Assembly: GCA_041651355.1 (NCBI GenBank)
Contig: JBAZJK010000002.1
Coordinates: 1-54,470 of the forward strand
Source: Patescibacteria group bacterium
GTDB taxonomy: Bacteria; Patescibacteriota; Patescibacteriia; Patescibacteriales; UBA12465
Length of the DNA: 54,470 nucleotides
Reading direction: 5' to 3'
The notes beneath the pieces were generated by a model, which was not told the DNA's origin, made no database searches, and saw only the letters and a list, made by a program, of their open reading frames with translations. How positions within the stretch are numbered: position 1 is the first letter of the stretch; every line of letters begins with the position of its first letter. Both the position numbers and the translations under genes were made by a program. Shown here piece by piece: positions 5,440 to 35,639 of this stretch.

Positions 5440-6603
5440 ATGGTTGAAGCCCAAGAAAAGAGATCAAAGCGGATTGCGGAGCTTAAGCGGAATATCATAA
5501 ACACCGCAACCAAAAGAGCGCAGGAGGCATCCTATCCTATCGCCGCCCGCAATAAAAATTTGCTTCTGAATGACTTTGAATATGCAACAGGCAAGATAGC
5601 CCTAGAGTCTTCTCCCGAGGGTATCGGTATAGGGACGCATTACGCCTGCAATGGGAAATGCGTTTTTTGTTTAGGCGGAAAACCCCGGATTTTCTCGCTT
5701 GAGAGATATAGGGAATTTTTTGAGCCGAGACTGGAAAACGTTTTATCAAGAGCAAGCTATGTGAGCTTCTGCGGTTTCGGAGAGTTGTTTTTAATGCCGC
5801 GGGTAGAGGAATTCATGGATTATGTAAATAAAAAAATTCCATGGGCTAATAAGATATATACTACAAACGGAGCGCCTTTAGCCAATGATAAGATATTAAA
5901 TTTACTTACCCAGAGCCAATCCGCAGTGCAGATATCTCTTCACGCCTCTCATAGAGAGCTCCACAGGGCCTTGACGAAATTAGACTCCTTTGACGAGATT
6001 GTAGCCAGAATAAGACAAATAATCTCTATGCGTAAGTCAAAAGAGCGCCCCAGCGTGATTCTGGTTTTTCTTATCAACAGCCTGAATGTGGAGAATCTTG
6101 CGGATTTTGTGGAGTTTGCCCATCGCCTGAGGGTAGACGAGGTGCGATGTAATTATATGACGGCATTCCATCACTCCCAGCTAAAGCTTTCATGTTTCTT
6201 TAAACAAGAGTTAACCAACCGGAGCCTGGAGGAGGCCGAAGAACGCGCTGCTAAGTTGGATTTGATTTTGAAACTGCCTCCGAGATTCGGCCGGGGTAGT
6301 CAAGGAACAGGGAGCCTCCTGTGCGCCGAACCCTGGAAATACATCTATGTGGAGAATGAATCTTCGGTCCTGCCGTGTTGTTATGCAGGCAGTCACTTCG
6401 GCTATTTGGACAGGATGGACTTTCAGACTATCTGGAACGGCTCAAGTTATAGGCAGTTGCGCAAGTCCTTGGTAGAGGGGCCGCCCCATAAATGGTGCAA
6501 ACATTGCCAGAGATACCGCGCAGAAAATATAAACGACATCCGTTCGCACATAAACTTCCGCCCCGGAGGGCTTTTAAAGATCTTGAAAGGGTATAAATTA
6601 TGA
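5440..6603 (+). CDS. Radical SAM/SPASM-domain protein (module A)
   Basis: CNGKCVFC, GFGE, TTNG, SLHAS. C-terminal CAEPW...PCC...IWNG...CKHC. Confidence 0.9.
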   Translation: MVEAQEKRSKRIAELKRNIINTATKRAQEASYPIAARNKNLLLNDFEYATGKIALESSPEGIGIGTHYACNGKCVFCLGGKPRIFSLERYREFFEPRLENVLSRASYVSFCGFGELFLMPRVEEFMDYVNKKIPWANKIYTTNGAPLANDKILNLLTQSQSAVQISLHASHRELHRALTKLDSFDEIVARIRQIISMRKSKERPSVILVFLINSLNVENLADFVEFAHRLRVDEVRCNYMTAFHHSQLKLSCFFKQELTNRSLEEAEERAAKLDLILKLPPRFGRGSQGTGSLLCAEPWKYIYVENESSVLPCCYAGSHFGYLDRMDFQTIWNGSSYRQLRKSLVEGPPHKWCKHCQRYRAENINDIRSHINFRPGGLLKILKGYKL

Positions 6604-9287
6604 AAGTTGCTCTTGTGCAATGCCCGGGCTGGGGCAGGGATTGCCCTCCTTATACGCTGGCGCTTTTTGCAGCATATCTGCGTCAAAATGAACATCGTGT
6701 TTTCAGTTACGATATCAATAACGCACTTTATTGTAGCGGACCTGACAAGTACAGGAGGATGTGGGATGACAAGGATCTCTATTCCTTTTGGAGCAACAAG
6801 TCCCTCATTACAGAGTTTATCCGGGACAACGAGAGGATGGTGGAATTTCAAGTAAAACATATTTTAGACAGCGGCGCCAAAATCATCGGTTTTAGCGTTC
6901 AGTTTAGTTCTCTGCTTGTCAGTTTAGAGGTAGCTCGCAGGATTAAGGCTAAATCCAGGGATAGAATTATTGTTTTTGGAGGTCCGGACTGCTGCCGCCA
7001 TTTACGGGGCTCAGAGATAATAAAAGAGGATTGCGTAGATGTCGTAGCGCTTGGCGAAGGAGACACAACATTATTAGAGTTAGTGAATATGGTAGAACTG
7101 GACGGCAAGGTAGAAAATTGCCCGGGCGCCTTACTTAAAAAAGAAGGGAAGATTTTTGATTGCGGCGACGGGATTGCAGTGAGAGATCTTGATCTTATCC
7201 CCTTTCCAGATTATAGCGATTTCAGAAAAGATATTATGGCCGGTCATTATCGTCAGCCCGAACGCCTAGAGATATTTGACAGCCGGGGATGCATTACTCG
7301 TTGCCATTTCTGCAGCGAATGGCAGTTTTGGCAAAATTATCGTTCCATGAGCGGAGAGAGAATATTCGAAGAGGTTGCTTATCAGATAAGGCGTTTTCCC
7401 GGAACGGAATATTTTTATTTTATCGGTTCACTCTTAAACGGGAATATAAAATCATTAAACAGGTTTTGTGATTTGGTAATACAGAATAGTCTGGTGGTAA
7501 GATGGGCCGGTCAGGCGGTAATAAGGCCAGAGATGAGCGCGGAACTTTTAGGAAAAATGAGAAAGGCCGGTTGCGAATGGTTGGGATATGGCATTGAAAG
7601 CGGCTCGCAGAGAGTAGTGGACAGCATGAATAAGCACTTCTTTATTGCGGATGCCGAAAGGGTATTAAGGGATACCCATCAGGCAGGGATTGGCACCCAG
7701 GTTAATTTTATGTTCGGCATTCCCACTGAGACATTGGAAGATTTTAAGGAAACACTGGAATTCCTTAAAAGAAACAGGGAGAACATTGATTCGGTTCTAG
7801 CAAGCCAATCGTTCTGCGTTTTAGACAAAGGCACATACCTTTACAACCATGCCGAGGAATTCGGCATCAGGAATCCCGATCATCATCTGTATTGGGAGAC
7901 AGACGGCAACGATTATCCGGAGAGATTCAGAAGGTATGAGGAATTTTGTAGTCTAGCCCTGTCTTTGGGGCTTCCGGAGACATCGGGCGTACTAAGGTTG
8001 AAACCCGACAAATGGGCGCTCTTGGGGGATTATTACCTTTTCAAGAAAGACTATCCCATGGCCAAAGAGTGCTTTCTTAAATCTATGGAAAGAGAATCCA
8101 GCAACAATACGGTCTCTGCGAAATTAGAGCTATGCGTCAAAGATCCGGAGGGAGCTCCTGGCGCTGCCCAGCGGGCTGAACTGCAGATCTACCCGGCAGA
8201 AGTTGCCGGAGAGCTTAGCGGGATGCAACAGAAAATCAGGGATGCGCTTAGTCGCTTTGGCCTGGCGGGGAAATTACGCAACTTCCTTGCAATGGAAAAA
8301 GAGAAACAGGAGCGCAGGGAAGAATTGGAATCCCATCCTTACTGGTTGACCATTGATCCCGCAAATTTTTGCACCCTTAGGTGCCCTTTTTGCCCTACCG
8401 GACAGAATCGCGGCTCTAGGGAAAAAACCAAGCTTTCCTTCGATAGTTTTGAAAAGATAATAGATGAGCTAGGCCCGTATTTAATCCATATAGATTTCTG
8501 CAACTGGGGGGAGCCCCTTTTGAATAAAGACATCTATAAGATGATAAGATGCGCCAAGGGGTATGGTATCGACACAAAGATAGACTCAAACCTTAACGTT
8601 TTCAGCGAAGAGGACGCCGAGGACATCGTATCATCGGGGCTGGATAAGATAATCGTCTCGATTGACGGGGCAACTCAGGGGTCATATTCGAAATACAGGA
8701 TAGGAGGGGATTTTAACGTCGCGTTAAATAACCTCAGGTTATTGATTGAGAAAAAAAGAGAGCTCCGCAAAGCAAATCCGTATATCTGCTGGCAGTTTCT
8801 TGTCTTCAGGCACAATGAGCACGAGACCGAAAAAGCGAAATCCATAGGCAGGGACCTGGGGGTTGACGACGTATCGATCACCAAGGCGTTTATCGGTAAT
8901 AAAGATTGGATACCACTTAATGAGCACTACAGTCATTACAAAAATAGCGAGATTGGCGATGACCAGTATACCTCCGGCTATTTCAAGTCTGCCAACGAAG
9001 AATTCTGTAATTGGCCGTGGGAAGCAATAGTAATAAATTCCAACGGATCCGTTTCGCCATGCTGTTCTGTTGAAGACGAAAAATACGATTTCGCAAACAT
9101 ACTGAAGCAGCCGTTTAAAGAACTCTGGAATAACGAAAAGTATATCAGGGCAAGAAGGTTTATCGGCAAGAGAGGCGGATGCGGTAGAGATAACGCAAAT
9201 ATATGCCACGGATGCAGGCACTCAGGACTAATCAATATAGATATACTTTCTTGCCACTCGTTATTTAATCGCGATGATAATAAATAA
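6600..9287 (+). CDS. Cobalamin-binding radical SAM fused via a TPR-like linker to a second radical SAM/SPASM domain (modules E+D)
   Basis: N-terminal B12-binding-type region (MKVALVQCPGWG...PP, GFSV, FGGP, GEGD). CITRCHFC at 7290-7313, GIESGS. TPR-like WALLGDYYLFKKDYPMAKECFLKSME. Second motif CTLRCPFC at 8370-8393, NWGEP, CNWPW...PCC...CHGC. Confidence 0.9.
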   Translation: MKVALVQCPGWGRDCPPYTLALFAAYLRQNEHRVFSYDINNALYCSGPDKYRRMWDDKDLYSFWSNKSLITEFIRDNERMVEFQVKHILDSGAKIIGFSVQFSSLLVSLEVARRIKAKSRDRIIVFGGPDCCRHLRGSEIIKEDCVDVVALGEGDTTLLELVNMVELDGKVENCPGALLKKEGKIFDCGDGIAVRDLDLIPFPDYSDFRKDIMAGHYRQPERLEIFDSRGCITRCHFCSEWQFWQNYRSMSGERIFEEVAYQIRRFPGTEYFYFIGSLLNGNIKSLNRFCDLVIQNSLVVRWAGQAVIRPEMSAELLGKMRKAGCEWLGYGIESGSQRVVDSMNKHFFIADAERVLRDTHQAGIGTQVNFMFGIPTETLEDFKETLEFLKRNRENIDSVLASQSFCVLDKGTYLYNHAEEFGIRNPDHHLYWETDGNDYPERFRRYEEFCSLALSLGLPETSGVLRLKPDKWALLGDYYLFKKDYPMAKECFLKSMERESSNNTVSAKLELCVKDPEGAPGAAQRAELQIYPAEVAGELSGMQQKIRDALSRFGLAGKLRNFLAMEKEKQERREELESHPYWLTIDPANFCTLRCPFCPTGQNRGSREKTKLSFDSFEKIIDELGPYLIHIDFCNWGEPLLNKDIYKMIRCAKGYGIDTKIDSNLNVFSEEDAEDIVSSGLDKIIVSIDGATQGSYSKYRIGGDFNVALNNLRLLIEKKRELRKANPYICWQFLVFRHNEHETEKAKSIGRDLGVDDVSITKAFIGNKDWIPLNEHYSHYKNSEIGDDQYTSGYFKSANEEFCNWPWEAIVINSNGSVSPCCSVEDEKYDFANILKQPFKELWNNEKYIRARRFIGKRGGCGRDNANICHGCRHSGLINIDILSCHSLFNRDDNK

Positions 9288-12967: not shown

Positions 12968-14845
12968 ATGAATGAGACGTCTAAGTATTTCAGAAAAAAC
13001 ATATTTCCCAAGAGGGTATTTTTAAACTGGGAGGTTACTCATCAGTGCAATTATAATTGTTTGTACTGTTCAATTCATAAGCCATTAACGACTGAATCTC
13101 TGCCCCGCCTGTCTATGGGAAAAATGAAGGAGATAAGCTGCGGGATATATGAGAGCTACGGAAGTTGTCATATAAGATTTTCAGGAGGGGAGCCTTTTGT
13201 TTGCCCGGATTTTATCCAGTTTCTTCGGGTGCTTTCAGAGTATCATACCCTGGAAGTCTCGACCAATCTCTCTGCGGATGTAAATAATTTAAAGGAACGA
13301 CTGTGTCCGGAGGGCCTGCTTTTATCAAGCAGTTTTCATCCGCAGTTCATTGATATCCACGAATTTCTAAAGAAGGTCCTATTTTTAAAAAATAGCGGGT
13401 TCGATATTTCGGTTACCTTTGTAGCATATCCTCCATTTTTGGCGCAACTAAAATATTATAGAGAGACCATAGAGAATAATGGAATACAATTCATCATTCA
13501 GCTTTTTAGCGGCGCATTCAACGGCCTAAGGTATCCGGAGTCATATACAGATGAGGAAAAAATGTTACTTAAAGAGCAGGCCGGCCTTTCTTTGCACAAA
13601 GATGCTAATAAGCAGATATACGAATCAAAGATGGATATCGGGAGAATCCACGCTCGCATTTGCCGCATGGGCCAGATGTATGCCAAGATCGACAATAATG
13701 GCGATGTATTCCGCTGTTGCGCATCAGGTAGCCCCAAATTGGGTAATATATTTAATGGTGGCTTGCAATTGTTGGATAAACCCCAGGCGTGCGAAATTAA
13801 CCCTTGCCCGTGTTGGAAGGCTATGATAGTAGGAGAAGAAGAGGTCTGGCTTAAGAATTGGGAATATCAAAAGCATCGGAAAGAAGGTAATTCCATTGAG
13901 GGAGGTGGTAACTTGGAGTCGTCTCTTAATATCAAGGAGACCATCCCGAGAGAATCAATTCCTCCCCACCGCGTATTTTTTACTTGGGATATCCATTATA
14001 GATGCAACTACAGGTGCACATATTGTAATGCCCCAAAGCCGGGGCAGGGAGGCTTTATTGAGGCGCGATACCTGCCGATTGATAAATGGTTAGCTATTTG
14101 GGGAGATATTTATGAAAGGTACGGCAGGTGCCAGATACAGTTATCGGGAGGCGAGCCGTTTATTTATCCCGGAGCCATGGATTTAGTAATACAGCTTTCT
14201 AAAATACATACCTTGGAATTTTCAACTAACTTTTATTGGGACATCGAGCCTTTTATACAAAATGTTAGTCCGGACAGAGCGCGGATAGGCGTAAGTTTTC
14301 ATCCCGAATTTGCTGATTTCGGTTCATTCTTAGACAAAGCCTTAAGGTTAAAAAGAAACGGGTTTGAAGTGTGGGTAAATTACGTAGCTTATCCCGCCTT
14401 ACTAAAAGACATGCCGGGATATAAACTTGAAATAGAGAGAGCGGGGATGCATTTTTCAATTTTGCCGTTCACGGGGCAATTTGAAGGGAGGGTATTTCCC
14501 GGGGGATATACTGAGCGCGAAATGATGGTTATAAATGAGGGGTATGTGGCGGCCGACGAAGTCAATAAAAAAACAATAGATTGGAATATGGGTGAACAAA
14601 AGAACAAGACCAAAGGAAAATTATGCCGCATGGGGCAAATGTACGGAAAGATCCGTCCTAATGGATTGGTGCATAGGTGTTGCGGCACCCCGGCTAGTGA
14701 GTTGGGCAACATAATCGATGGGACGTTTAAGTTATCGGAGGAACCCCTGGCTTGTGAGTCAGAGCAGTGTCCTTGCTGGCGATGTATGCTTGTATCGGAT
14801 GAAGGGCAGTGGTCAACCCATTGGGTTATACCTCATAAGCGCTAG
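12968..14845 (+). CDS. Tandem double radical SAM protein (modules B+B)
   Basis: Two homologous halves, CNYNCLYC and CNYRCTYC. Each half has GGEPF, STN, SFHP, CRMGQMY, and a C-x4-CPCW ending. Confidence 0.9.
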   Translation: MNETSKYFRKNIFPKRVFLNWEVTHQCNYNCLYCSIHKPLTTESLPRLSMGKMKEISCGIYESYGSCHIRFSGGEPFVCPDFIQFLRVLSEYHTLEVSTNLSADVNNLKERLCPEGLLLSSSFHPQFIDIHEFLKKVLFLKNSGFDISVTFVAYPPFLAQLKYYRETIENNGIQFIIQLFSGAFNGLRYPESYTDEEKMLLKEQAGLSLHKDANKQIYESKMDIGRIHARICRMGQMYAKIDNNGDVFRCCASGSPKLGNIFNGGLQLLDKPQACEINPCPCWKAMIVGEEEVWLKNWEYQKHRKEGNSIEGGGNLESSLNIKETIPRESIPPHRVFFTWDIHYRCNYRCTYCNAPKPGQGGFIEARYLPIDKWLAIWGDIYERYGRCQIQLSGGEPFIYPGAMDLVIQLSKIHTLEFSTNFYWDIEPFIQNVSPDRARIGVSFHPEFADFGSFLDKALRLKRNGFEVWVNYVAYPALLKDMPGYKLEIERAGMHFSILPFTGQFEGRVFPGGYTEREMMVINEGYVAADEVNKKTIDWNMGEQKNKTKGKLCRMGQMYGKIRPNGLVHRCCGTPASELGNIIDGTFKLSEEPLACESEQCPCWRCMLVSDEGQWSTHWVIPHKR

Positions 14846-14852
14846 GATATTA

Positions 14853-15692
14853 ATGGAAAAACTGAATAACAAACGGATTACATTCTCTTGGGATATACAT
14901 TATGCCTGTAATTATCGTTGTCCGTATTGTTGGTATGCGGCGGACGGGACGTTTTTAAAAAATAAAAATAAATACCTACCATTTAAAAAGCTGATAGATA
15001 TCTGGACCGACATGCATAGAAAACACGGTTCCTTATGGATTGATATAATCGGAGGCGAGCCGTTTATCTATCCTGATTTTAACGAGATAATCAGAGAGCT
15101 TTCCAAAATGCATTTCATAGAGATTACCTCTAATCTGTCAACTGATCTATCAAGCTCTCTAGGCGGGATAAACCCCGAAATGGTGCGCATCGCAGGGACG
15201 CTGCACCCCCTATTCGCAGACCTGCGCGTTTTTATCAGGAACTTACTGGCGCTTAAAGAGCATGGGATAAAAACCTTTGCGCTCTATTTGGCATATCCGC
15301 CTCAAATCCCTCTCATTCCGTATTACAGGGAGAAATTCGCTTATTGCGGGATAGACTTCTCGGTAATAACCTTCTGGGGGGAATATAGGGGTGTCAGGTA
15401 TCCTGAAGGATACAGCCAGGAAGAAATAAATATTATCGAGCCTTTTTTGGGAGAGCGAGGGGAGGAAAAATATCAATTGCGTCCTAAAGAGGTAAAGAGA
15501 AAAATATGCCGTGCCGGGCAAATTTACGTAAATCTAAAAGCCGACGGGTCTGCGTATAGATGTGGTTCCCATAAATCCCAATCATTGGGGAACCTGTTTG
15601 CGGGTAACTTTCAGTTGCTGGATAAGCCCATGCCGTGCGATTCAGACTTTTGTCCCTGCAATGAATGGGCCGGCTTGTTAGTCGAGACGTGA
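14853..15692 (+). CDS. Compact radical SAM protein (module B); start moved from 14718 to ATG 14853
   Basis: MEKLNNKRITFSWDIHYACNYRCPYC, GGEPF, YPP, CRAGQ, CDSDFCPC. ATG 14853 lies 8 nt after the upstream stop and aligns with the paralog starts. Confidence 0.88.
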   Translation: MEKLNNKRITFSWDIHYACNYRCPYCWYAADGTFLKNKNKYLPFKKLIDIWTDMHRKHGSLWIDIIGGEPFIYPDFNEIIRELSKMHFIEITSNLSTDLSSSLGGINPEMVRIAGTLHPLFADLRVFIRNLLALKEHGIKTFALYLAYPPQIPLIPYYREKFAYCGIDFSVITFWGEYRGVRYPEGYSQEEINIIEPFLGERGEEKYQLRPKEVKRKICRAGQIYVNLKADGSAYRCGSHKSQSLGNLFAGNFQLLDKPMPCDSDFCPCNEWAGLLVET

Positions 15693-15719
15693 TGCGAGGT
15701 TAATCAAAGGACAGACTGA

Positions 15720-16349
15720 ATGAGTAAAATGCTAAGCGGACTTGGAAGGGTCTTTGTGATCCTGACCGATGAACAAAATAAAATCTTGAGGCGCTCCGTT
15801 CTTATTGTGGATAACGGTTATTACCCGCAGGAGCACCTGCGCAGCGTTGTAGCGGAAACACAGAGGCGCATTCCGGCTTCCGAGGTCGCAATCCTTTCTT
15901 TTGAACATAGAAGAGGCTATCTTCAAGAAAATTTTCCAGATATCAAAGCTGTCTTTCCGGGAAAATGGATTAGGCCGCAAAGATATAGTTTAGCCATTAA
16001 GTTGTTAATCCTAAGCAGAAGGGGTTACGATTTTGTGGTTGTAATGTCTTTGGACAAGACGCCGATAATAGTTGCGTTATTGTTCATGAATGCACAGCTC
16101 TTTTTATATAATAGATGGAACGAATGGTATCTTTTGAGATTCAGGAACCCTTGGGAGTTTTTAACATTCAGGGAAGGACAGGATATAGCTAAATATAGAT
16201 CTCGAAACAGCCGGTTTATAAATTTATTTTTATTTATACCCAGACTCATTCTTCATGTTCTCGTATTCATATATTTAGCATCCTATAGTTTATTTCTTCT
16301 CTTTTATAGACTTTACAATATTATTAAAATCAGGTTATTGAAGAAATAG
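15720..16349 (+). CDS. Hypothetical protein with C-terminal hydrophobic segment; possibly a lone GT-B (GT9-like) N-terminal Rossmann domain
   Basis: In-operon ORF. VLIVD...FP.SEVAIL...YDFVVVM pattern resembles the GT9 N-domain. Hydrophobic FLFIPRLILHVLVFIYLASYSLFLLF near the end. Confidence 0.55.
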   Translation: MSKMLSGLGRVFVILTDEQNKILRRSVLIVDNGYYPQEHLRSVVAETQRRIPASEVAILSFEHRRGYLQENFPDIKAVFPGKWIRPQRYSLAIKLLILSRRGYDFVVVMSLDKTPIIVALLFMNAQLFLYNRWNEWYLLRFRNPWEFLTFREGQDIAKYRSRNSRFINLFLFIPRLILHVLVFIYLASYSLFLLFYRLYNIIKIRLLKK

Positions 16350-16365
16350 AACAAGAGAAGCGACT

Positions 16366-17424
16366 ATGGAAACCGATGTCCGGCAGTTTAGCTCCGATAA
16401 AATATTAAAGCATCTGGATCGCGTTAATGAATGGCTCGAGGGACTTAATCCCCCGCCGGTTACCGTTGAGCTGGACATGACAAATTTATGCAACCATAAG
16501 TGCCCCGAGTGCGTAGTTAACTATTTCAGAGTCGCCGATAAAAGCGCGCTTTCAGGCGTTACCGCTAAATCCATCATTAGACAATTAGCGAGAGCCAAGG
16601 TGAGGGGGTTGATATTCACGGGAGGCGGAGAGCCGCTTTGCAACCCCCATACCTTATCGGCCGTGGAATTGGCGAAGGCTAGCGGGTTAGACGTAGGCTT
16701 TATCACCAACGGCGCGCTCTTAAATCAAAAGATAGCAGGGGCTTTATTAGAGAGCTGCACTTGGATTAGGGTATCTCTGGATGCCGGCTCGCCGCGGGCG
16801 TTCCAGTCTACCCACGGCATGAATGATAGTGAGTTCCGTAAGGTCGTTGATAATATCGGGGTTTTGACAGGTCTCAAGAGAAAAATGAAAAACAGATGCA
16901 CCGTAGGCGTCGGTTTTCTTACCTGTGATTATACGACTACCGATATGGAGAAGGCGGCGGCATTGAGTAAAAGGATGGGCGTTGATTACCTGCAGTTTAG
17001 GCCGATGCAGATCCATAGAGGTGGAAAATTTGGGTATCATTGGTTAGACGTGCAGGCCAATATAAAAAAGTGCCTAAGATATTCCGGAAATGGTTTCCAG
17101 GTGCTTTATTCCAAACACAAATATGATATGGCCCACGACCCGCGTTTCGGCAGGCATTATCGGAAATGTTACGGGCATCAATTCGCGACGGTAGTAGCTG
17201 CGGATGCCAAGATGTATCTTTGTTGCCACACCCGCGGATACAAAAAATACTGTATCGGAGACCTGAAAAAAGATTCTTTTAAGAAAATCTGGAATTCCAA
17301 GAGGAGAAAAACGGTAGCCAAAAGGATTGATTTTAAGGACTGCATTCCTTTATGCCGCGATAATACTTTTAATCAGATACTGTGGAATATAAAACAAAAC
17401 AGGGAGCACGTGAATTTTCTATAG
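16366..17424 (+). CDS. Radical SAM/SPASM-like protein (module C)
   Basis: PVTVELDMTNLCNHKCPEC, GGGEP, ITNG, SLDAG. C-terminal CYGHQF...CC...IW...C...CR. Confidence 0.9.
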   Translation: METDVRQFSSDKILKHLDRVNEWLEGLNPPPVTVELDMTNLCNHKCPECVVNYFRVADKSALSGVTAKSIIRQLARAKVRGLIFTGGGEPLCNPHTLSAVELAKASGLDVGFITNGALLNQKIAGALLESCTWIRVSLDAGSPRAFQSTHGMNDSEFRKVVDNIGVLTGLKRKMKNRCTVGVGFLTCDYTTTDMEKAAALSKRMGVDYLQFRPMQIHRGGKFGYHWLDVQANIKKCLRYSGNGFQVLYSKHKYDMAHDPRFGRHYRKCYGHQFATVVAADAKMYLCCHTRGYKKYCIGDLKKDSFKKIWNSKRRKTVAKRIDFKDCIPLCRDNTFNQILWNIKQNREHVNFL

Positions 17425-17431
17425 CAATCTC

Positions 17432-18649
17432 ATGAAACGGCATAGTAACCCAGGAAATAAATTCTTGGTTATCAAGACAGTATCGGGTTATGTATTAAAA
17501 GGGTTTATTAGCGCAGCAGTTTTTTTAATAATTTTAGAAGCGGCACTGCAGATAACCGGGACAGCATATCTAAGATTAAAATATACAATTAAAAACCCGG
17601 AAGCGCTAAAGGACGATTCTTTACGCATAATGTTTATAGGGGATTCCTGGACGCAGGGGGCTGACGCAGCCCCGGGGCCGGGATATGTAATGCTGGTGAC
17701 GCAAGAATTGAACCGCCTTTACCCTGTTAAAAGCATCCAGGTATATAATTTTGCCTTAGGCAGCACGAATTCATCGCAGGCAATACATCAGTTTTTAGAC
17801 AACTATCGCAATATAAAACCCGATATATTGGTGGTTTTGACAGGGGCAAATAACGGATGGAATACCCAAGATATTATAACCGCCCGCAAGCGCATTAGAA
17901 ACGGGATAATTAATTATAATGAGCTGGAAAACACTAGTTTTGCCGAACAGTCCGCCAACTTTTTTAAAAAATTGAAGATCGCAAAGTTATATAACTTGAT
18001 TTCGTACAATATATTTTATAAATCCCAGGAAATCAAGATTCCCCTGCCCGACAATGAATACCTTCTTGGTTACCATAAAATTTTTAATGCTACCAGGGAT
18101 CCAGAAAAAGCAAGATTATATTTAATAAATAACTATAAGGAAAATACGACTGATTACAATGATCTTTATAAAGCAACGCGGCATTCCTTTGGAGGCGACA
18201 TAGAAAAAACCTTAAATTATTTAAAAAATAAAAACATGCTCAAACTTAATTTGATTAGCGAGAAAATAGATATAAAGAAGGATAGAACCAGTCGGTCTCT
18301 TCATTTGAAAATCCTGGAAGAGAATCTGACGGATTTGAAAGACCTGTGCGACCAGGAAGGCATAATAATGGTTGTAGAGAATTATCCTTATAATAGTATG
18401 CAGTTTAGAGCTGTCAACGATGCCCTCGGCAGAATATCTTCAAGGATAAATGCAGTCTATGTAAATCATTACGGGTATTTCAAGGATAAAGTTGGCTATG
18501 AAGAATGGGATAAGGTTATGACTAAGTCGCACGTTAATTATAAAGGTCACGAGTATATGGCGGACAATCTGGTTGAGATATTGAGCGCTGCTATTGCTAC
18601 TCAAGAGAGAAGCAAAAAAGATAGGGAGAATATGAATTCTGAAAAATGA
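17432..18649 (+). CDS. Membrane-anchored SGNH/GDSL-family protein (putative esterase or O-acyltransferase)
   Basis: N-terminal TM segment. Block I FIGDSW, block II NFALGS, block III TGANN, block V TKSHVNYKGH. Confidence 0.8.
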   Translation: MKRHSNPGNKFLVIKTVSGYVLKGFISAAVFLIILEAALQITGTAYLRLKYTIKNPEALKDDSLRIMFIGDSWTQGADAAPGPGYVMLVTQELNRLYPVKSIQVYNFALGSTNSSQAIHQFLDNYRNIKPDILVVLTGANNGWNTQDIITARKRIRNGIINYNELENTSFAEQSANFFKKLKIAKLYNLISYNIFYKSQEIKIPLPDNEYLLGYHKIFNATRDPEKARLYLINNYKENTTDYNDLYKATRHSFGGDIEKTLNYLKNKNMLKLNLISEKIDIKKDRTSRSLHLKILEENLTDLKDLCDQEGIIMVVENYPYNSMQFRAVNDALGRISSRINAVYVNHYGYFKDKVGYEEWDKVMTKSHVNYKGHEYMADNLVEILSAAIATQERSKKDRENMNSEK

Positions 18650-20523
18650 AACGCGGCCCCCTGAACAATAGATTGCATGCGGCTTGGGAGATTTTTTATA
18701 GGTGTAATTATAGGTGTCCCTATTGTTTTTTCTACGAGAGTTGGGCAGACCGCAGGATAAGCTATAAGCATGTACCAGCTGAGAAATGGATTGAATGCTG
18801 GGACAGAGTTTATGATAGATACGGGAGTGTAAATATCTGTATATCCGGCGGAGAGCCGTTTATCTATCCCGGCTTTATGAAGATAGTCGCCGAGCTGTCC
18901 AAGAGACACGCGCTGACGATTGTGACCAATTTATCATGGGAAACCGAGATATTTGTTAATACAGTATTTCCTCAAAGAGTGGCTATTCATCCGAGTTTGC
19001 ACCCCTTGTTTGCCGATTTAGGAATTTTTAAGAGTAAATTAAGACGCTTAAGAGAGAAGGGATTTGATGCTACGCCGACATGCGTAGGCTATCCTCCCCT
19101 ATTGAAAAAAGCCTTAGATATTAAGAAAGAATTAGAAAACGATAGATTTGGCTTGGTGGTTTCTCCGTTTTCTGGGGTGTACAATGGGATTCTGTATCCC
19201 CAGGGATATACTGATGAGGAGAGGCGTCTTGTAGGCATGCTCTCTGCAGATGACCCTAAGATGAAAAAATACCAGTTGGAAAAAGCTCCTACTAAAGGCA
19301 AATTGTGCAGTGCCGGGCAGGCATATATAAGGGTTCATCCGGATGGTGACATTTTCCGTTGTGCGCATGCTATTAAACCGATGGGCAATATTCTAACTGA
19401 TGATTTTAGCCTTTTGAAAGAACCGCAACCTTGTGAAGCGAATTCCTGTGAATGCGGGAATGAGCTGGTACACATTATCGACGATAAAACGACTAAATCA
19501 GAGAACATTTTAAGCGTTGACTCCTCATTTGTCAGGAAAGAACTAATAGTCGGTGGATACCCCTATCGTTTGCGCGTGGAAATATCTAATGCCTGCAATT
19601 TAAGATGTACGTCTTCAAAAGAGGCTTTCAGCAGATGTCCGCAGTGGGAGATTAACAATGCGGCTCCTGTTTTGATGTCATTTGATTTTTTTAAAAAGAT
19701 TGCGGATGAGACTGGACGGTATCTTACCCATGCCGAACTTTATAATTACGGCGAGCCTTTCATGAATCCCCGCGCCGTTGATATGATACGTTACCTTAAG
19801 CAGATAAATCCAGAGGTTATTATTGAGATGCATACGAACGGGCATTATTTTAAGACTGAGAAGAAAAGAGAAGATATTATCAATTCAGGTTTAGATATTT
19901 TGTCGTTTTCTGTAGACGGTATCACCCAAGAGGTATATGAGAAGTATCGTATCGGCGGGGATTTAGAGACGGTGCTTAGAGCTATCAGGGGAATCTGCGC
20001 TTTGAAAAAATCGATGAATATGCTGAAACCAAGGGTGATTTTTCAATTTATCGTATTTGAGCATAACTTCCATGAAGCGCCGAAGGTCGAAGAATTTGCC
20101 AAAGAGTTAGGGGCGGATGAGGTGGCTTTAAAGACCGATATCTTTAACCTCAGGCCCGAATTGAAGATTTCGCACGCGGATATCTATAGCGCCGTCGTCG
20201 GCCTTCAAAGCAAGGATAGCAGAGACAATTTTTTTAAGAAGGACGAAGATGCCGGCCGTCAGTTTTGCGATTTTCCTTGGGTTTATCCGACTATTCTTGC
20301 GGACGGCCGGGTAGTTATCTGTTGCCGGGATGGGCGTTATGAAAGTCTTGTCGGGGCAATCGGGGGTAGAACTTTAATCCAGGTATGGAATAACGAGGCA
20401 GCCCAGGAATTCCGCAGGAGATTCTTGGAAGAAGATACCAAACCCTACCCCTGTTCTCTATGCGAATGTAGGCCGAAAAATAATAGTATCACTGTGGGTG
20501 AAAAATGCAGTTGCCGGAATTGA
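18646..20523 (+). CDS. Double radical SAM protein (modules B+D); second domain has an atypical CX3CX9C motif
   Basis: CNYRCPYC, GGEPF, CSAGQ, CEANSCEC. Then SNACNLRCTSSKEAFSRC, NYGEP, SVDG, YRIGGD, CDFPW...CC...CSLC. Confidence 0.88.
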   Translation: MKRGPLNNRLHAAWEIFYRCNYRCPYCFFYESWADRRISYKHVPAEKWIECWDRVYDRYGSVNICISGGEPFIYPGFMKIVAELSKRHALTIVTNLSWETEIFVNTVFPQRVAIHPSLHPLFADLGIFKSKLRRLREKGFDATPTCVGYPPLLKKALDIKKELENDRFGLVVSPFSGVYNGILYPQGYTDEERRLVGMLSADDPKMKKYQLEKAPTKGKLCSAGQAYIRVHPDGDIFRCAHAIKPMGNILTDDFSLLKEPQPCEANSCECGNELVHIIDDKTTKSENILSVDSSFVRKELIVGGYPYRLRVEISNACNLRCTSSKEAFSRCPQWEINNAAPVLMSFDFFKKIADETGRYLTHAELYNYGEPFMNPRAVDMIRYLKQINPEVIIEMHTNGHYFKTEKKREDIINSGLDILSFSVDGITQEVYEKYRIGGDLETVLRAIRGICALKKSMNMLKPRVIFQFIVFEHNFHEAPKVEEFAKELGADEVALKTDIFNLRPELKISHADIYSAVVGLQSKDSRDNFFKKDEDAGRQFCDFPWVYPTILADGRVVICCRDGRYESLVGAIGGRTLIQVWNNEAAQEFRRRFLEEDTKPYPCSLCECRPKNNSITVGEKCSCRN

Positions 20524-20542
20524 ATTACAAATTTAAACGATA

Positions 20543-21628
20543 ATGAGGTCCGGGCAATCAGAAAACAAGGCGCTTAACGAAAAAGAATATGTTGCCCGAA
20601 AAGACATTCTGCAATCCGGTCCTAGCAACATAATTTTATGCTCAACTTATAAATGTAATATGAGTTGTATTTTTTGCTTGGGGAGAGGTCAAGACCCCGA
20701 TTTCAACTGCGATATTTATAAAAAAATTTTCGAAAATAAATTACGCCGGTTTTTAGAAAATGCTACGGATATCTGTTTTACGGGATGGGGAGAATTCCTA
20801 TTATGGCCCGGGGCAGCGGACTTCTTAGGTTATCTTAACGAGCATTTCCCCGAAGCAAACAAGATTCTTACCACTAACGGCACCCCCTTGTCGGAAGCCA
20901 TGGCGAGCAAGATGATAATCGGAAATTATACGGTACAGGTCTCCTTACATACATCTGATGCGCTTATCCATAGGTCGCTTACGCAGTCTGATTTTTTTGA
21001 GCAGATTGTCATGAATCTGGACAATTTGATTCTGCTAAGAAACGAGAACAGTTGCCATTCAAAATTATGGATAGTCTTGATGTTCCTTGTAACCTCATTA
21101 AATATTGAAAATTTACCTGATTTTGTGGATTTTGCAGGATTGCGCGGGGTAAACGAGGTATTTTGTAACTATATAACTATTTTTTTGCCTGAGCAGATTG
21201 GGTTGTCATGTTTTTTCTCGCCCCAGAACACTAACCGGATATTTGATGAAGCGCAAAAGAGGGCTCAAAGATATAATATGCGTTTAAATCTGCCTCCTCG
21301 GTTTGGCCTAACAGACGGCATGCAGCGAGAAAGCGTATGCCAAGACCCCTGGAACACTGTTTTTATAGACGGGTTAGGGAATATCCACCCCTGCTGTTTT
21401 TCCGGCAGACCTATAGGCAATATTAACATGGATGATTTTGGGGCGATATGGAATGGAGAAAATTACAGGGAATTGCGCAATTGTTTAACCGAGAATAGGT
21501 CACATGAAAGATGTAAAAATTGCTATAAGTTTTCTCCGGTAAACGTTAACGATATAAAGTCACACGTTACCTTTCGCGACATTCGCGCCAAAGAAGATAT
21601 TTTTAGAAGATTAAACCTAGAAGCTTAA
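20543..21628 (+). CDS. Radical SAM/SPASM-domain protein (module A)
   Basis: CNMSCIFC, GWGE, TTNG, SLHTS, LSCFF, LPPRFG, CQDPW...PCC...CKNC. Confidence 0.9.
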   Translation: MRSGQSENKALNEKEYVARKDILQSGPSNIILCSTYKCNMSCIFCLGRGQDPDFNCDIYKKIFENKLRRFLENATDICFTGWGEFLLWPGAADFLGYLNEHFPEANKILTTNGTPLSEAMASKMIIGNYTVQVSLHTSDALIHRSLTQSDFFEQIVMNLDNLILLRNENSCHSKLWIVLMFLVTSLNIENLPDFVDFAGLRGVNEVFCNYITIFLPEQIGLSCFFSPQNTNRIFDEAQKRAQRYNMRLNLPPRFGLTDGMQRESVCQDPWNTVFIDGLGNIHPCCFSGRPIGNINMDDFGAIWNGENYRELRNCLTENRSHERCKNCYKFSPVNVNDIKSHVTFRDIRAKEDIFRRLNLEA

Positions 21629-21648
21629 TTTTAATATAAGAGTTAAAG

Positions 21649-22833
21649 TTGAAAAAGGCACCCCCCATAGATTTATATAAGATGCTTAATGGCAGAGAGA
21701 TAAAATTTGATTGTTGTTATTTCAATGGTGCCAAGCCATGTCAATTCAGCTCCGTATGTAATAGTTGCGATTCCTATCGCCCAATGGGGAAAAGAATACT
21801 GGTTATAAAACTAGCTTCTGCGGGAGATGTTTTAAGGACTACAGCTTTATTGCCTGCTTTAAAAGTGAAATTCCCGGACAGTTATGTAACCTGGCTTACT
21901 AAAGAACCTGCCAATGAGCTATTAGAATTAAGCCCTTATATAGACCGTATCCTTACATACGGGTTAGAATCCGCAACTTTGCTACAGGTTGAAAGCTTCG
22001 ATCTGGTTATTTCTTTGGATAAGGCTTCCGAGGCAGCCTCTCTGGCCGAACTAGTTAAAGCGGCAGCGAAGTGCGGATACGGCTTAAATGAAAAAGGGAA
22101 AATCTACCCTTTTAACAAAAAAGCCGAATACTCTTTCCTGCTTGGTTTAGATAATGAATTGAAGTTTTCCATCAATAAAAAAACTTATCAGGAGATTATG
22201 TTTGAGGCGGTCGGGTTGCCTTATAATAATGAACGATACGAATTAAGACTAGGCCCCCGGGAATTAGATTTTGCAGCGGAATTTTTTAAAAGACAAAATC
22301 TCAGTAGCAGCGATTTTATAATTGGGATAAATACAGGGGCAGGGAAAATCTTCGCCAATAAAAGTTTGAAGCCGGCGAGGATAGTCGAATTAATAGGCTT
22401 GCTATATGAACGGTTGAATACGAATATAAAGATATTATTATTAGGGGGCCCCCTTGAAAAAGATATTAATGGAACCATATTAAAAAAATTGACAGATCAT
22501 AAAATAATAGATAGCGGTCATGAAAATACTATCCGTGAATTCTGCTCTTTGGTTAATCTTTGTTCCGCCGTTATCAGCGCTGATACCCTGGCGTTGCATA
22601 TAGCCGTCGCCCTTAATAAGGCAGCCATAGCGTTGTTCGGTCCTACCTGCCCCCAAGAGATAGACCTCTATAACCGCGGCCGCAAAATAATTACAAAATC
22701 AGAATGCGCCCCTTGCTATAAGAATATATGCGATAAGAACGTCACATGCATGGACAGGATAGACCTTAATGAAGTTGTGGGAGCGATAAAAGAGTTGGAG
22801 CCGATTTGTTCTAAAGGCCATGAGAGATATTGA
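21649..22833 (+). CDS. GT9 family glycosyltransferase (ADP-heptose heptosyltransferase-like) with Cys-rich N- and C-termini
   Basis: RILVIKLASAGDVLRTT, IGINTGAG, ADTLALHIAVA, LFGPT. TTG start as given; the true start may be the downstream ATG. Confidence 0.85.
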   Translation: MKKAPPIDLYKMLNGREIKFDCCYFNGAKPCQFSSVCNSCDSYRPMGKRILVIKLASAGDVLRTTALLPALKVKFPDSYVTWLTKEPANELLELSPYIDRILTYGLESATLLQVESFDLVISLDKASEAASLAELVKAAAKCGYGLNEKGKIYPFNKKAEYSFLLGLDNELKFSINKKTYQEIMFEAVGLPYNNERYELRLGPRELDFAAEFFKRQNLSSSDFIIGINTGAGKIFANKSLKPARIVELIGLLYERLNTNIKILLLGGPLEKDINGTILKKLTDHKIIDSGHENTIREFCSLVNLCSAVISADTLALHIAVALNKAAIALFGPTCPQEIDLYNRGRKIITKSECAPCYKNICDKNVTCMDRIDLNEVVGAIKELEPICSKGHERY

Positions 22834-23743
22834 GATATCAGTGGTTATGCCGGTAAAAAACGGAGAAAAGCGCCTCGCAACGGTATTGGACTCCGTATTT
22901 GCTCAGGAGATTGATGTCGGATTTGAGGTTATCATTGTGGATTCGGGATCAAATGATACCAGCCTAGAGATAATAAAAAAATATCCGGTTGAGGTCTACC
23001 ATATTCCCGAGCATAAATTCAACCATGGGCTTACGCGTAATTATCTTATATCCAAAAGCCGAGGGGAGTTTATAGTTTTGCTTACCCAGGATGCCGTACC
23101 CCGCGATAATTATTGGATGAAAAAGCTCGTAGATGAACTAAAACAGGATAGCATGGTAGCCGGGGTTTATTCCAGACAGATTCCTCACCGCGATGCGAGC
23201 ATAATTACCCGCATGAGGTCGCAAAGATTTTATGCAGCTTCCGGGGAGAGAAGAGAGAGTTGTATTAGAACGCGGGGGGATTACGACAATCTATCTGCGA
23301 ACCAAAAACACAAATTCTGTAACTTTGAAAACGTCTCTTCCTGCATCAGGAAAGCAGTCTGGAAAAAGTATCCCTTTCCCAAAACAGACTTTGCCGAAGA
23401 CCTGCTCTGGTCAAAAACAGTTTTAGAAAACGGCTTTAAGGTTATCTATAAGCCGGAATCCGTGGTTTATCATTCACACGATTTTTCAGCATGGGGATGG
23501 TATAGAAGGAATCTTATAAATTATAGCGCCCTCCACGCAATTTTTGGGATGAATACAGCAGAGAGTTTGCGTAAATTGCCAAAAATATTTTTCTTTTATG
23601 CACTAAGAGATTTATGCCAGCTTATTAAGGAAGGAGGGTGCCCCAGGAATATCATTTCAAATATCCACCTAATTCCTATTTTTTCCTTCACGGGGGTACT
23701 AGGGCAGCACTTAGGTATAAAAAATTCTAAGCGTCGAAGGTGA
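22820..23743 (+). CDS. GT2 glycosyltransferase (rhamnosyltransferase-like)
   Basis: ISVVMPVKNG, VDSGSND, FNHGLTRN, LLTQDAVP, FAED, VYHSH. Confidence 0.88.
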   Translation: MRDIEISVVMPVKNGEKRLATVLDSVFAQEIDVGFEVIIVDSGSNDTSLEIIKKYPVEVYHIPEHKFNHGLTRNYLISKSRGEFIVLLTQDAVPRDNYWMKKLVDELKQDSMVAGVYSRQIPHRDASIITRMRSQRFYAASGERRESCIRTRGDYDNLSANQKHKFCNFENVSSCIRKAVWKKYPFPKTDFAEDLLWSKTVLENGFKVIYKPESVVYHSHDFSAWGWYRRNLINYSALHAIFGMNTAESLRKLPKIFFFYALRDLCQLIKEGGCPRNIISNIHLIPIFSFTGVLGQHLGIKNSKRRR

Positions 23744-23750
23744 CTCTCGT

Positions 23751-25115
23751 ATGAAGATATTGCAGGTAGTACATAGTTTGCCTTTTCTAACTCAGGCGGG
23801 CACGGAGATATATGCATACGAGCTGTCTCTGCGCCTGGCCGGAAAGCACGAAGTTTATTTATTCTCCAGAAAATCTGATATCAGGCAAGAGGAGTACCTG
23901 GTTACAGATAAGAAACACAATCAGGTGAGCATCTGTCTGCTGAATAATACGTTTAGAGAATGCACGTCATTCGAATATTATTATGCCAATAAGAAGATAG
24001 ACATTCAATTTGCGCTTTTTCTCGATAAGGTCAAACCAGATATAGTGCATATTCACCACCTTATATTTTTATCGGTGGGCATGATACAGGAAATAAATAA
24101 AAGGAAGATACCCGTTGTTTTTACGCTACACGATTATTGGCTCATGTGTCCGGGCTGGCACCTTTTAAAAAAAGACTGCCGTCCATGCACAAAGGCTCAA
24201 TATGGAAAGTTCGATGAGGAATGCATAATTTGTTTAAATGATTTACTTGCTGTCAAAAAAACAGCCAAGAGGACCTATCTTATTATTAGAAGTATTACCC
24301 CGAAGTTTCTTTCCGATTATCTCAGAAGAAAATACTTTCAATTCATACCAAGGATGCCTGGCGATAACGCCGCCTTGATTAGGCTCGAGGAACGGCGCCA
24401 CAAAATTCGCGGTCTCTTGGATAGGATAGACATGTTTATCGTTCCTTCGAGGTACGCAAGGGATAGATTTATGGAGTTTGGCATTTCGCAGAGAAGAATG
24501 AGAATATTGTCCTCCGGAGTGGATGCCGGACTGTTTGAGGTAACAGATAAAATTCCTAGCAGGAAACTCAGGTTTGGTTTTATCGGTACTCTCCTGCCGG
24601 CAAAAGGGATTCATGTTTTACTTGAGGCTTTCCATAAAGTTAAAGGCGAGGCAGAATTGAAGATTTACGGGAAGTTAAAACAATATATCGGCTTTGAATA
24701 TTATTTACCGTATTTAAAAAGAATAGCAAAGGATAAGAGAATAAGGTTTATGGGAGAATTTAAGCATGCAGAGTCCCAAAAAATTTTTAAAGAATTGGAT
24801 GTATTAGCGGTTCCTTCCATCTGGAATGAAAATGCACCCCTGGTTATACAGGAAGCCTTTGCTTCCAAGACTCCCGTGATTGCGTCTAGAATCGGCGGAA
24901 TACCCGAATTGGTTTCTGACGGCGTGGATGGGATATTGTTTCAACCCGGAGATATAGAAGGCCTCTATCATAAAATGCAATTATTGGTGTCTCAGCCGGA
25001 TATAATAGATAAGCTAAAGAGAAACATATCGCAGGTAAAGAACATATCTGACCACGCGAAAGAGATAGAAGAAATTTACAGCGGTTTATTAACTGCCAAG
25101 AGTTATTTATCATAA
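23751..25115 (+). CDS. GT4 glycosyltransferase
   Basis: MKILQVVH, GTEIY, PDIVHIHH, TLHDYW, KGIHVLLEAF, PSIWNENAPLVIQEAFASKTPVIASRIGGIPE. Confidence 0.92.
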   Translation: MKILQVVHSLPFLTQAGTEIYAYELSLRLAGKHEVYLFSRKSDIRQEEYLVTDKKHNQVSICLLNNTFRECTSFEYYYANKKIDIQFALFLDKVKPDIVHIHHLIFLSVGMIQEINKRKIPVVFTLHDYWLMCPGWHLLKKDCRPCTKAQYGKFDEECIICLNDLLAVKKTAKRTYLIIRSITPKFLSDYLRRKYFQFIPRMPGDNAALIRLEERRHKIRGLLDRIDMFIVPSRYARDRFMEFGISQRRMRILSSGVDAGLFEVTDKIPSRKLRFGFIGTLLPAKGIHVLLEAFHKVKGEAELKIYGKLKQYIGFEYYLPYLKRIAKDKRIRFMGEFKHAESQKIFKELDVLAVPSIWNENAPLVIQEAFASKTPVIASRIGGIPELVSDGVDGILFQPGDIEGLYHKMQLLVSQPDIIDKLKRNISQVKNISDHAKEIEEIYSGLLTAKSYLS

Positions 25116-34938: not shown

Positions 34939-35628
34939 ATGATGACTGACATAGCTGTTTCAATTTGCGTGCCTGCGTTTAACGAAGAAAAAACCCTGAG
35001 GGGAGCCGTTGAGGATTTATTAGAGACTCTGCACTCGAAGGTCGGGGGATTAGATATTATTATCGTTGATGACGGGAGCACGGATTCTACCACGCAGGTT
35101 TCCGTTCAGCTAATGAGGATGCATAAAAATATCAGGGTTATCCGGCATGCAAAAAGAATGGGCATCGGGGCAAGCTACAGAGATGCCTTAAAAATAGCCC
35201 GGGGGGATTATTTTACATGGTTCCCCGCAGACCATGAGAATTCAGCTCAGGAATTTATCCTCTGCCTGCCATATTTAAAAAAAGGCGCGATAGCAACATG
35301 TTATCATCGCGGACAGGACCCCCGGACATATTTGCGGCGTTTTATTTCCCGCGGTTATACCGTTCTTTTAAATATCGTTTTCCGCTTAAATCTAAAATAT
35401 TACAACGGCTTGACAATATTCCCGCTATCGGCCTTGTCTCCGTCCGTTTCTCTTTGCGACGGCTTCTTTTTTACCGCCGAAAATATCATCAAGGCAGTCC
35501 GGAGAGGTTACAAGGTAATAGAACTACCGGCTCCGTTAAAGGGGCGCGCATCCGGAAGCTCCAGTGCGTTGACATTTTCATCTTTCAGACAGGCGATAAG
35601 CGATATCCTGCGTATTTTAAGGGGATAA
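34939..35628 (+). CDS. GT2, polyprenol-phosphate glycosyltransferase (DPM1-like)
   Basis: VSICVPAFNEE, VDDGSTD, GIGASYRDA, FPADHE, R...SSA. Short single domain. Confidence 0.85.
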   Translation: MMTDIAVSICVPAFNEEKTLRGAVEDLLETLHSKVGGLDIIIVDDGSTDSTTQVSVQLMRMHKNIRVIRHAKRMGIGASYRDALKIARGDYFTWFPADHENSAQEFILCLPYLKKGAIATCYHRGQDPRTYLRRFISRGYTVLLNIVFRLNLKYYNGLTIFPLSALSPSVSLCDGFFFTAENIIKAVRRGYKVIELPAPLKGRASGSSSALTFSSFRQAISDILRILRG

Positions 35629-35639
35629 GGATACATCGG

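Follow-up and report, generated by a model that had tools for sequence, protein, structure and literature searches.

Radical S-adenosylmethionine (SAM) enzymes form one of the largest superfamilies of enzymes, commonly described by the cysteine motif CX3CX2C. How, then, should we read a domain that sits in such an enzyme and spaces its three cysteines differently? The question is raised by a 54,470-nucleotide (nt) stretch of DNA from a Patescibacteria group bacterium (assembly GCA_041651355.1, contig JBAZJK010000002.1), which we call the window throughout, and in which a single open frame of 625 codons on the + strand (18646-20523) encodes a protein with two radical SAM domains. Residues 314-334 of this protein, at the start of its C-terminal domain, read SNA-C317-NLR-C321-TSSKEAFSR-C331-PQW, so that the cluster cysteines are spaced CX3CX9C in place of the near-universal CX3CX2C. 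A first-pass annotation had placed this motif (C317-C331) at nt 19594-19638, and the translation agrees with it exactly. It is the only motif other than CX3CX2C among the ~18 radical SAM cysteine motifs encoded by the window. The literal CX3CX2C triad is absent from the C-terminal domain, but three cysteines are still present at the homologous loop.

Judging from homologs and predicted structure, we think it likely that the C-terminal domain works as a radical SAM enzyme of the twitch type in a pathway of glycan modification, with a conserved insert of 7-9 residues between the second and third cysteines of the motif (Cys2 and Cys3 below) and with Cys331 as the third cluster ligand. A CX3CX9C pattern by itself is trivial by chance; at the level of sequence it ceases to be trivial when it lies at the homologous position and is invariant in 20/20 members of a clade whose synonymous divergence is saturated. 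The features on which the argument draws are these:

18646-20523, + strand: fusion protein of 625 amino acids (aa) with two radical SAM domains (open reading frame, translation, Pfam and a second assembly, L057)
18646-19485, + strand: STM4011-like radical SAM domain at the N terminus ('module B'), its canonical motif C20-NYR-C24-PY-C27 lying at nt 18703-18726 (NCBIfam, motif)
19480-19506, + strand: fusion junction, DDKTTKSEN (comparison with a metagenome contig, L140)
19513-20520, + strand: C-terminal radical SAM/twitch domain (~aa 290-625) bearing the variant motif (AlphaFold2, Foldseek, profile against the PDB)
19594-19638, + strand: variant cluster motif C317-x3-C321-x9-C331 (translation, clade conservation)
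19612-19614, + strand: Ser323 (TCT) at Cys2+2 (homolog comparison)
19639-19647, + strand: P-Q-W immediately after the third Cys, with x-[Q/H]-W kept clade-wide (Q44 and W45 invariant in alignment A1; model)
19741-19761, + strand: YNYGEPF (aa 366-372), the 'GGE'-type SAM-binding motif (conservation)
19831-19851, + strand: HTNGHYF core motif with conserved T-N (T/S and N in all variant-clade rows)
19903-19959, + strand: SFSVDG (aa 420-425) ... YRIGG core motifs (S, D, G, Y and R in all variant-clade rows)
20266-20469, + strand: twitch/SPASM-like cysteines C541, C559, C560, C603, C606 and C608 (PF13186, alignment A1, BtrN alignment)

The variant clade and its conserved residues

The domain served as a first query against 5.8 billion clustered proteins, and a profile made from its initial matches as a second. 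The domain belongs to a variant clade of ~20 clusters at 90% identity (P0002-P0008, P0049, P0050 and P0197-P0207), which a step in bit score from 463 to 226 separates from the next, canonical relatives. All 20 clade members that have the region carry CX3CX9C or CX3CX11C, with the third Cys invariant and followed by x-[Q/H]-W. The X9 form is found in 13 members (C-NL[KRF]-C-T[FY][SA]K[EDT]x[FY][SG]x-C-x[QH]W) and the X11 form in 6 (C-NL[FY]-C-[TS][FLY]S......GG-C-xQW), one of which, P0206, comes from an Elusimicrobia metagenome-assembled genome (locus L011); the insertion is thus shared among homologs, the point on which the first-pass annotation had proposed a search. Among 1.84 billion representatives at 50% identity, the clade accounts for four sequences of 1,508 matches below 1e-30, and the variant occurs in none of 40 searched genomes from the host's own family or order, two of which have a match at E <= 1e-20 (one canonical, and one partial with its motif unresolved). 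With the loop columns left out of the alignment, a maximum-likelihood tree with support from the Shimodaira-Hasegawa-like approximate likelihood-ratio test (SH-aLRT) gives the X9 branch a support of 95, the X11 branch 99 and the two together 99, and it places the window's domain inside the X9 clade. The majority of the clade stands alone, as proteins of 328-404 aa in which the variant motif is the only SAM-cluster motif.

The rest of the domain has changed little. The SAM-core residues G-E (in YNYGEPF), T-N (in HTNGH), S-x-D-G, Y-R, Q and H-N are kept in 19/19 variant rows, and the G and E of the GE motif are also found in ~99% of canonical relatives. The twitch cysteines C252, C270, C271, C314 and C317 (domain numbering) are invariant in alignment A1. 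Across seven genes of the X9 branch, the proportion of nonsynonymous differences (pN) is 0.16-0.23 against a synonymous proportion (pS) of 0.65-0.85; because synonymous sites are saturated, the comparison is of these proportions only. Between relatives, the amino acids of the loop itself are kept through synonymous codons (TGT/TGC, ACG/ACA/ACT, AAA/AAG, GAG/GAA, TTT/TTC). By these comparisons the variant domain is still under purifying selection.

Profile searches recognize the domain as well. Pfam finds Radical_SAM (PF04055) twice in the 625-aa protein (E 4.8e-23) and SPASM (PF13186) at aa 541-606 (E 1.2e-13), and NCBIfam radical SAM models match the C-terminal domain at aa 308-495. The best of these, TIGR04317 (tungsten-cofactor oxidoreductase radical SAM maturase), covers aa 308-495 with 116.2 bits against a cut-off of 380, which leaves the domain outside that family. 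The warning that standard searches would miss this domain holds for literal pattern searches, but not for hidden Markov model searches with Pfam and NCBIfam, which still find it. For the N-terminal domain the best profile is NCBIfam NF038073 (STM4011 family; aa 19-277), at 88.9 bits under a cut-off of 200.

Position and spread of the insert

Is the third cysteine of the variant the true Cys3, or has the original been lost and another recruited? Counting residues to the G of GE(P) gives the following distances:

Canonical (n=235): 39 from the third Cys to the G of GE(P), 42 from Cys2 to the same G
CX3CX4C: 39 and 44
CX3CX8C: 38 and 47
CX3CX9C: 37 and 47
CX3CX11C: 37 and 49

By these counts, the variants have a net gain of 5-7 residues in the Cys2-Cys3 interval. 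Their third Cys is thus homologous to the canonical Cys3, with the extra residues inserted ahead of it, and the in-frame insertion that had been proposed between Cys2 and Cys3 is upheld. Loss of the original cysteine to serine together with recruitment of a downstream Cys, which a first MAFFT alignment had suggested, is ruled out by the same distances; the Ser that this alignment puts in the canonical Cys3 column is no ligand candidate either, because P0205 has Ala in its place. Cys451 (domain Cys162), the sole other clade-typical Cys, was invariant in a first alignment of 7 sequences, and it was also considered as an alternative ligand and rejected: two X11 members have Ala there and canonical relatives have V, I or L. 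This marks its column as a buried helix position.

The natural comparison is with the canonical 'radical SAM/SPASM domain-containing protein' relatives (CNLxCPxCPTG), such as P0009 and the C-terminal domain of the open reading frame (ORF) at 6600-9287 in the window. They are 30-35% identical to the variant domain, share its core motifs and twitch cysteines, and frequently occur joined to a glycosyltransferase, cupin or B12-radical-SAM domain. In these relatives CX3CX2C is followed by P-T-G, whereas members of the variant clade carry an insert of 7-9 residues, and x-Q/H-W in place of P-T-G. The first-pass annotation had used the domain of ORF 6600-9287 as its reference, and CTLRCPFC does lie at the aligned place; it is, however, only a distant paralog, 35% identical and on a different branch of the tree. 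The same annotation held that the insertion displaces an aromatic residue that normally stacks on the SAM adenine. This was overstated, since in this family it is usually Leu that precedes the canonical Cys3 (L 88, E 36, F 19, M 14; n=237).

The variant clade is not alone in departing from CX2C. We recovered ~270 domains of the C-terminal domain's family and sorted them by the length of the Cys2-Cys3 interval:

X2 (canonical): 237 domains
X3: 2 domains
X4 (e.g. CNLRCPQPAC): 9 domains
X5: 1 domain
X8 (P0169, CNLRCMSEEPYLVCPAG): 1 domain
X9: 13 domains
X11: 6 domains

The X3-X5 group is sister to X9+X11 with a support of 93, and three X2 rows fall inside it, while the X8 sequence P0169 is placed elsewhere in the tree, beside an X2 sequence, with a support of 98. 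From the placement of X3-X5, X9, X11 and X8, the second interval has grown on at least two occasions within the family, probably in steps in one of the lineages. Relatives with other lengths of this interval, or departing from the motif altogether, are P0077, P0083, P0093, P0096, P0115, P0125, P0141, P0150, P0186 and those at loci L013 and L020, together with P0169 and P0053. The C-terminal part of the X3-X5 group aligns poorly to the twitch domain.

Predicted structure and possible roles of the loop

Modelling of the loop, which had also been proposed, gave a confident fold around an uncertain apex. AlphaFold2 predicts the C-terminal domain from 76 aligned sequences with a mean predicted local distance difference test score (pLDDT) of 91.4 and a predicted template modelling score (pTM) of 0.90, with pLDDT <50 only at the insert apex (Ser324-Phe328) and in the C-terminal tail. 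A second model, from a shallower alignment, agrees on the fold and is less confident about the loop. In the model a short helix begins directly after Cys331 at P-Q-W-E-I (domain residues 43-47). Foldseek against the PDB assigns a probability of 1.00 to radical SAM structures, the top matches being DesII (8hzv, E 7e-12), BtrN (4m7t, E 2.7e-11) and BlsE (7vob, E 5.6e-11) at template modelling scores (TM-scores) of ~0.5-0.6, followed by SuiB, PqqE, CteB, SkfB and anSME. BtrN, DesII and BlsE are twitch radical SAM enzymes with sugar or aminocyclitol substrates, and the carbohydrate gene context of the window fits them too, but they carry the canonical CX3CX2C and are only ~15-17% identical in sequence to the window's domain.

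The C-terminal cysteines are arranged as C541-x12-G-x4-C559-C560 ... C603-x2-C606-x-C608, with five to six of them conserved and five invariant in the clade. Despite the PF13186 match, this departs from the seven-cysteine SPASM signature (CX9-15GX4C - gap - CX2CX5CX3C - gap - C); it agrees with a twitch domain, that is, a C-terminal domain of reduced length that conserves three to four Cys, by cysteine count, by fold and by profile alignment to BtrN. The twitch (auxiliary-cluster) region of BtrN is in fact the only sequence-level PDB match of the clade's profile, and the CC and CxxC align there. The pattern C-x12-G-x4-CC ... CxxCxC therefore points to a twitch-type domain that would hold a single auxiliary cluster rather than the two of a full SPASM domain. 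The first-pass description of an otherwise intact domain was thus right about the core motifs (YNYGEPF, SFSVDG), but a full set of seven SPASM cysteines is missing, with five to six of twitch type in its place.

How might such a domain work? We picture a SAM-binding [4Fe-4S] cluster held by Cys317, Cys321 and Cys331, and one auxiliary cluster in the twitch domain. The usual CX3CX2C loop would have gained 7 residues between the second and third Cys (9 in the sister branch), while the third Cys would keep its normal place relative to the barrel and the x-Q/H-W turn after it would start the short helix. The insert would most likely form a flap over the cluster and SAM site, and it may help to bind adenine, substrate or an electron donor. 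The chemistry would probably resemble that of BtrN, DesII and BlsE (oxidation, dehydration, epimerisation or decarboxylation) and act on a sugar of a surface polymer, and the variant domain would cooperate with the canonical radical SAM domain to which it is joined in the window, and which relatives encode next to it as a gene of its own.

Several points weigh against this reading. The apex of the insert, Ser324-Phe328, stays below a pLDDT of 50 in both models. Ser in place of Phe, Tyr or Leu at Cys2+2 could weaken the window's own copy. Cluster binding and SAM cleavage by the variant family are themselves inferred, and the substrate and reaction are guesses from gene context and fold.

Known variants of the motif offer a partial guide. 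One published list gives PhnJ (CX2CX21CX5C), HmdB (CX5CX2C), QueE (CX14CX2C) and ThiC (CX2CX4C), with the motifs of PhnJ and ThiC near the C terminus (PMC4389238). RadicalSAM.org, which covers ~616,000 sequences, adds CX4-, CX5-, CX6-, CX7-, CX8-, CX9- and CX11-CX2C clusters, all of them variants of the first interval (PMC9477430). Both lists agree with the earlier remark that known variants mostly expand the first interval. Full-text literature searches for expanded second-interval spacings, CX3CX9C and CX3CX11C included, returned no radical SAM paper, and within the limits of the literature searched a conserved expansion of this interval is undescribed. QueE (7-carboxy-7-deazaguanine synthase), HmdB and the CX4-11CX2C variants resemble the window's domain in having an ordinary barrel, an insertion in the cluster loop and all three Cys; they differ in that their insert lies between Cys1 and Cys2 with CX2C intact, whereas in the window's clade CX3C is intact and the second interval has grown from 2 to 9 or 11. 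By analogy, QueE would be the closest case, with its insert in the opposite interval and a normal barrel. The work of Grell et al. in 2019 (Protein Sci 28:202) on QueE reportedly found, going by its title, that modifications near the cluster engender flavodoxin specificity.

It is also possible that the three cysteines do bind a cluster, but that the stretched loop alters what the site does, and this we regard as unlikely. The alteration could take the form of a changed SAM geometry or cleavage regiochemistry, of a loop Lys, Glu/Asp or Ser/Thr that caps the unique iron until substrate or a partner binds, or of pure electron transfer. In support of this possibility, the CX2C half of the motif, which is unchanged in all the RadicalSAM.org variants (PMC9477430), is interrupted here, conservation extends to the insert (T-[FY]-[SA]-K-[ED]-x-[FY]-[SG] in X9, a GG-C turn in X11), and there is a new invariant Trp after Cys3. 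But altered or absent SAM binding would not be expected to leave the SAM-core residues of canonical relatives fully kept, as they are; stand-alone members, moreover, need a catalytic site of their own, and altered chemistry is without direct support. A bolder form, to which we give quite a small chance, is that the stretched loop represents a new class of SAM-cluster site, the first with a broken CX2C half, in which the conserved insert gates or redirects chemistry. Were this so, a loop residue would cap the unique iron, or the Trp and the insert would reposition SAM and change the bond that is cleaved, and the run of intervals X3, X4, X5, X9 and X11 would record the stepwise evolution of the site.

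Degeneration, of the window's copy or of the whole clade, is in our view very unlikely. In that case the domain would hold no cluster and would persist by lending structure to the canonical N-terminal domain or by binding substrate for it, and its fusion to an intact radical SAM domain in the window would make sense. The change from Phe to Ser at Cys2+2 is also unique to the window's lineage: Ser323 is confined to it, the second assembly L057 included, while other clade members have Phe, Tyr or Leu at this position and the X9 relatives have F or Y (for example TTT, against TCT in the window). Degenerate copies do exist nearby, as in the second domain of P0053, and NCBIfam has a 'pseudo-SAM/SPASM' family, TIGR04347, to which the match is weak. 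These share with the window's domain a SPASM-type fold that departs from the canonical motif, but in TIGR04347 and in the second domain of P0053 the triad is lost, whereas in the window's clade the three Cys are strictly conserved. The third Cys is present in 20/20 members under strong purifying selection, no SAM-core or twitch residue is missing, the majority of the clade is encoded by genes that stand alone, and decay would not keep a fixed Cys spacing across two branches. P0053 itself is a double-domain relative of 674 aa whose second domain lacks the cysteine triad (TGSRSCPFMHGG) and keeps the rest of the fold; going by its sequence, that second domain is an example of a truly degenerate copy.

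Finally, there is practically no chance that the motif arose through an error of sequencing or assembly, such as a spurious insertion of 21 nt or a chimeric join, because divergent homologs from other samples share the insert and an independent assembly, GCA_028718265.1, carries the identical motif without a gap: its contig JAQUMG010000116.1 (L057; 5,795 nt) aligns to window positions 15534-21328 at 99.76% identity with no gaps and 14 mismatches, five of them in the gene for the 625-aa protein, of which one, synonymous, falls in the C-terminal domain and none in the motif.

Gene neighbourhood and wider meaning

A working enzyme of glycan modification, the reading we prefer, would sit among suitable neighbours. 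The window is an uninterrupted run of + strand genes for glycosyltransferases (GT2, GT4, GT9), PMT/GT-C-like enzymes, a family 5 glycoside hydrolase (GH5), GDSL/SGNH esterases and many radical SAM enzymes, and other clade members have genes for B12-radical SAM proteins, PMT_2, GT2, polysaccharide deacetylase and amidase as neighbours. A syntenic arrangement is seen on a metagenome contig, L140 (JGI Ga0194126_10002434), which encodes P0202 (68% identical) and keeps the gene order of window positions 16366-25115:

Gene 1: radical SAM/SPASM
Gene 2: GDSL
Gene 3: module-B radical SAM, 280 aa
Gene 4: variant domain, 328 aa
Gene 5: radical SAM/SPASM
Further downstream: GT9, GT2, GT4

At 3560-3620 of L140 the upstream gene ends in ...IKEKS-stop, and 4 nt later the next gene starts with MKSENIS; at the fusion junction, the window lacks this stop and reads ACT where L140 has ATG. 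Since the two genes are separate in L140 and no stop divides them in the window, the 625-aa protein represents a fusion, specific to this lineage, of neighbours that are functionally linked.

Other members of the clade are fused in other ways. In P0203 (1158 aa), which also contains a methyltransferase, the variant domain comes after a B12-binding radical SAM domain; ORF 6600-9287 of the window has a canonical domain in that position behind its own B12-binding radical SAM domain. The X11 variant domain is fused to a canonical paralog in P0005 (750 aa) and to a 2-oxoglutarate-Fe(II) (2OG-Fe(II)) oxygenase in P0007/P0008 (832/872 aa).

The host genome of 1.07 Mb is in 11 contigs and 98% complete, and the window is the entire contig C2, which resembles the main contig C1 in GC content (42.5% vs 42.3%) and tetranucleotide use (r = 0.88). 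Although the cluster has a GT9 (heptosyltransferase-like) gene, neither LpxC nor Omp85/BamA was found in this genome. Two pairs of listed ORFs in the window overlap, 34939-35628 with 35298-36701 by ~330 nt and 12968-14845 with 14718-15692 by 128 nt; these are probably over-long start calls and possibly frameshifted or fused genes.

What does a stretched second interval mean for the family? The published lists of variants suggested that the tight CX2C turn by the SAM adenine is fixed in the ordinary N-terminal loop, and the CX3CX9-11C clade, together with its CX3CX3-5C sister branches, shows that the second half of the loop can be remodelled as well. This bears on motif-based annotation, on the role of the loop in SAM binding and electron delivery, and on the choice of targets for structural work. 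The clade would offer a clean, testable exception to the textbook motif, although its mechanistic consequence is not yet clear-cut. For the organism, it marks one step in a large, radical-SAM-rich glycan pathway of uncultivated bacteria, and its practical weight is moderate for now.

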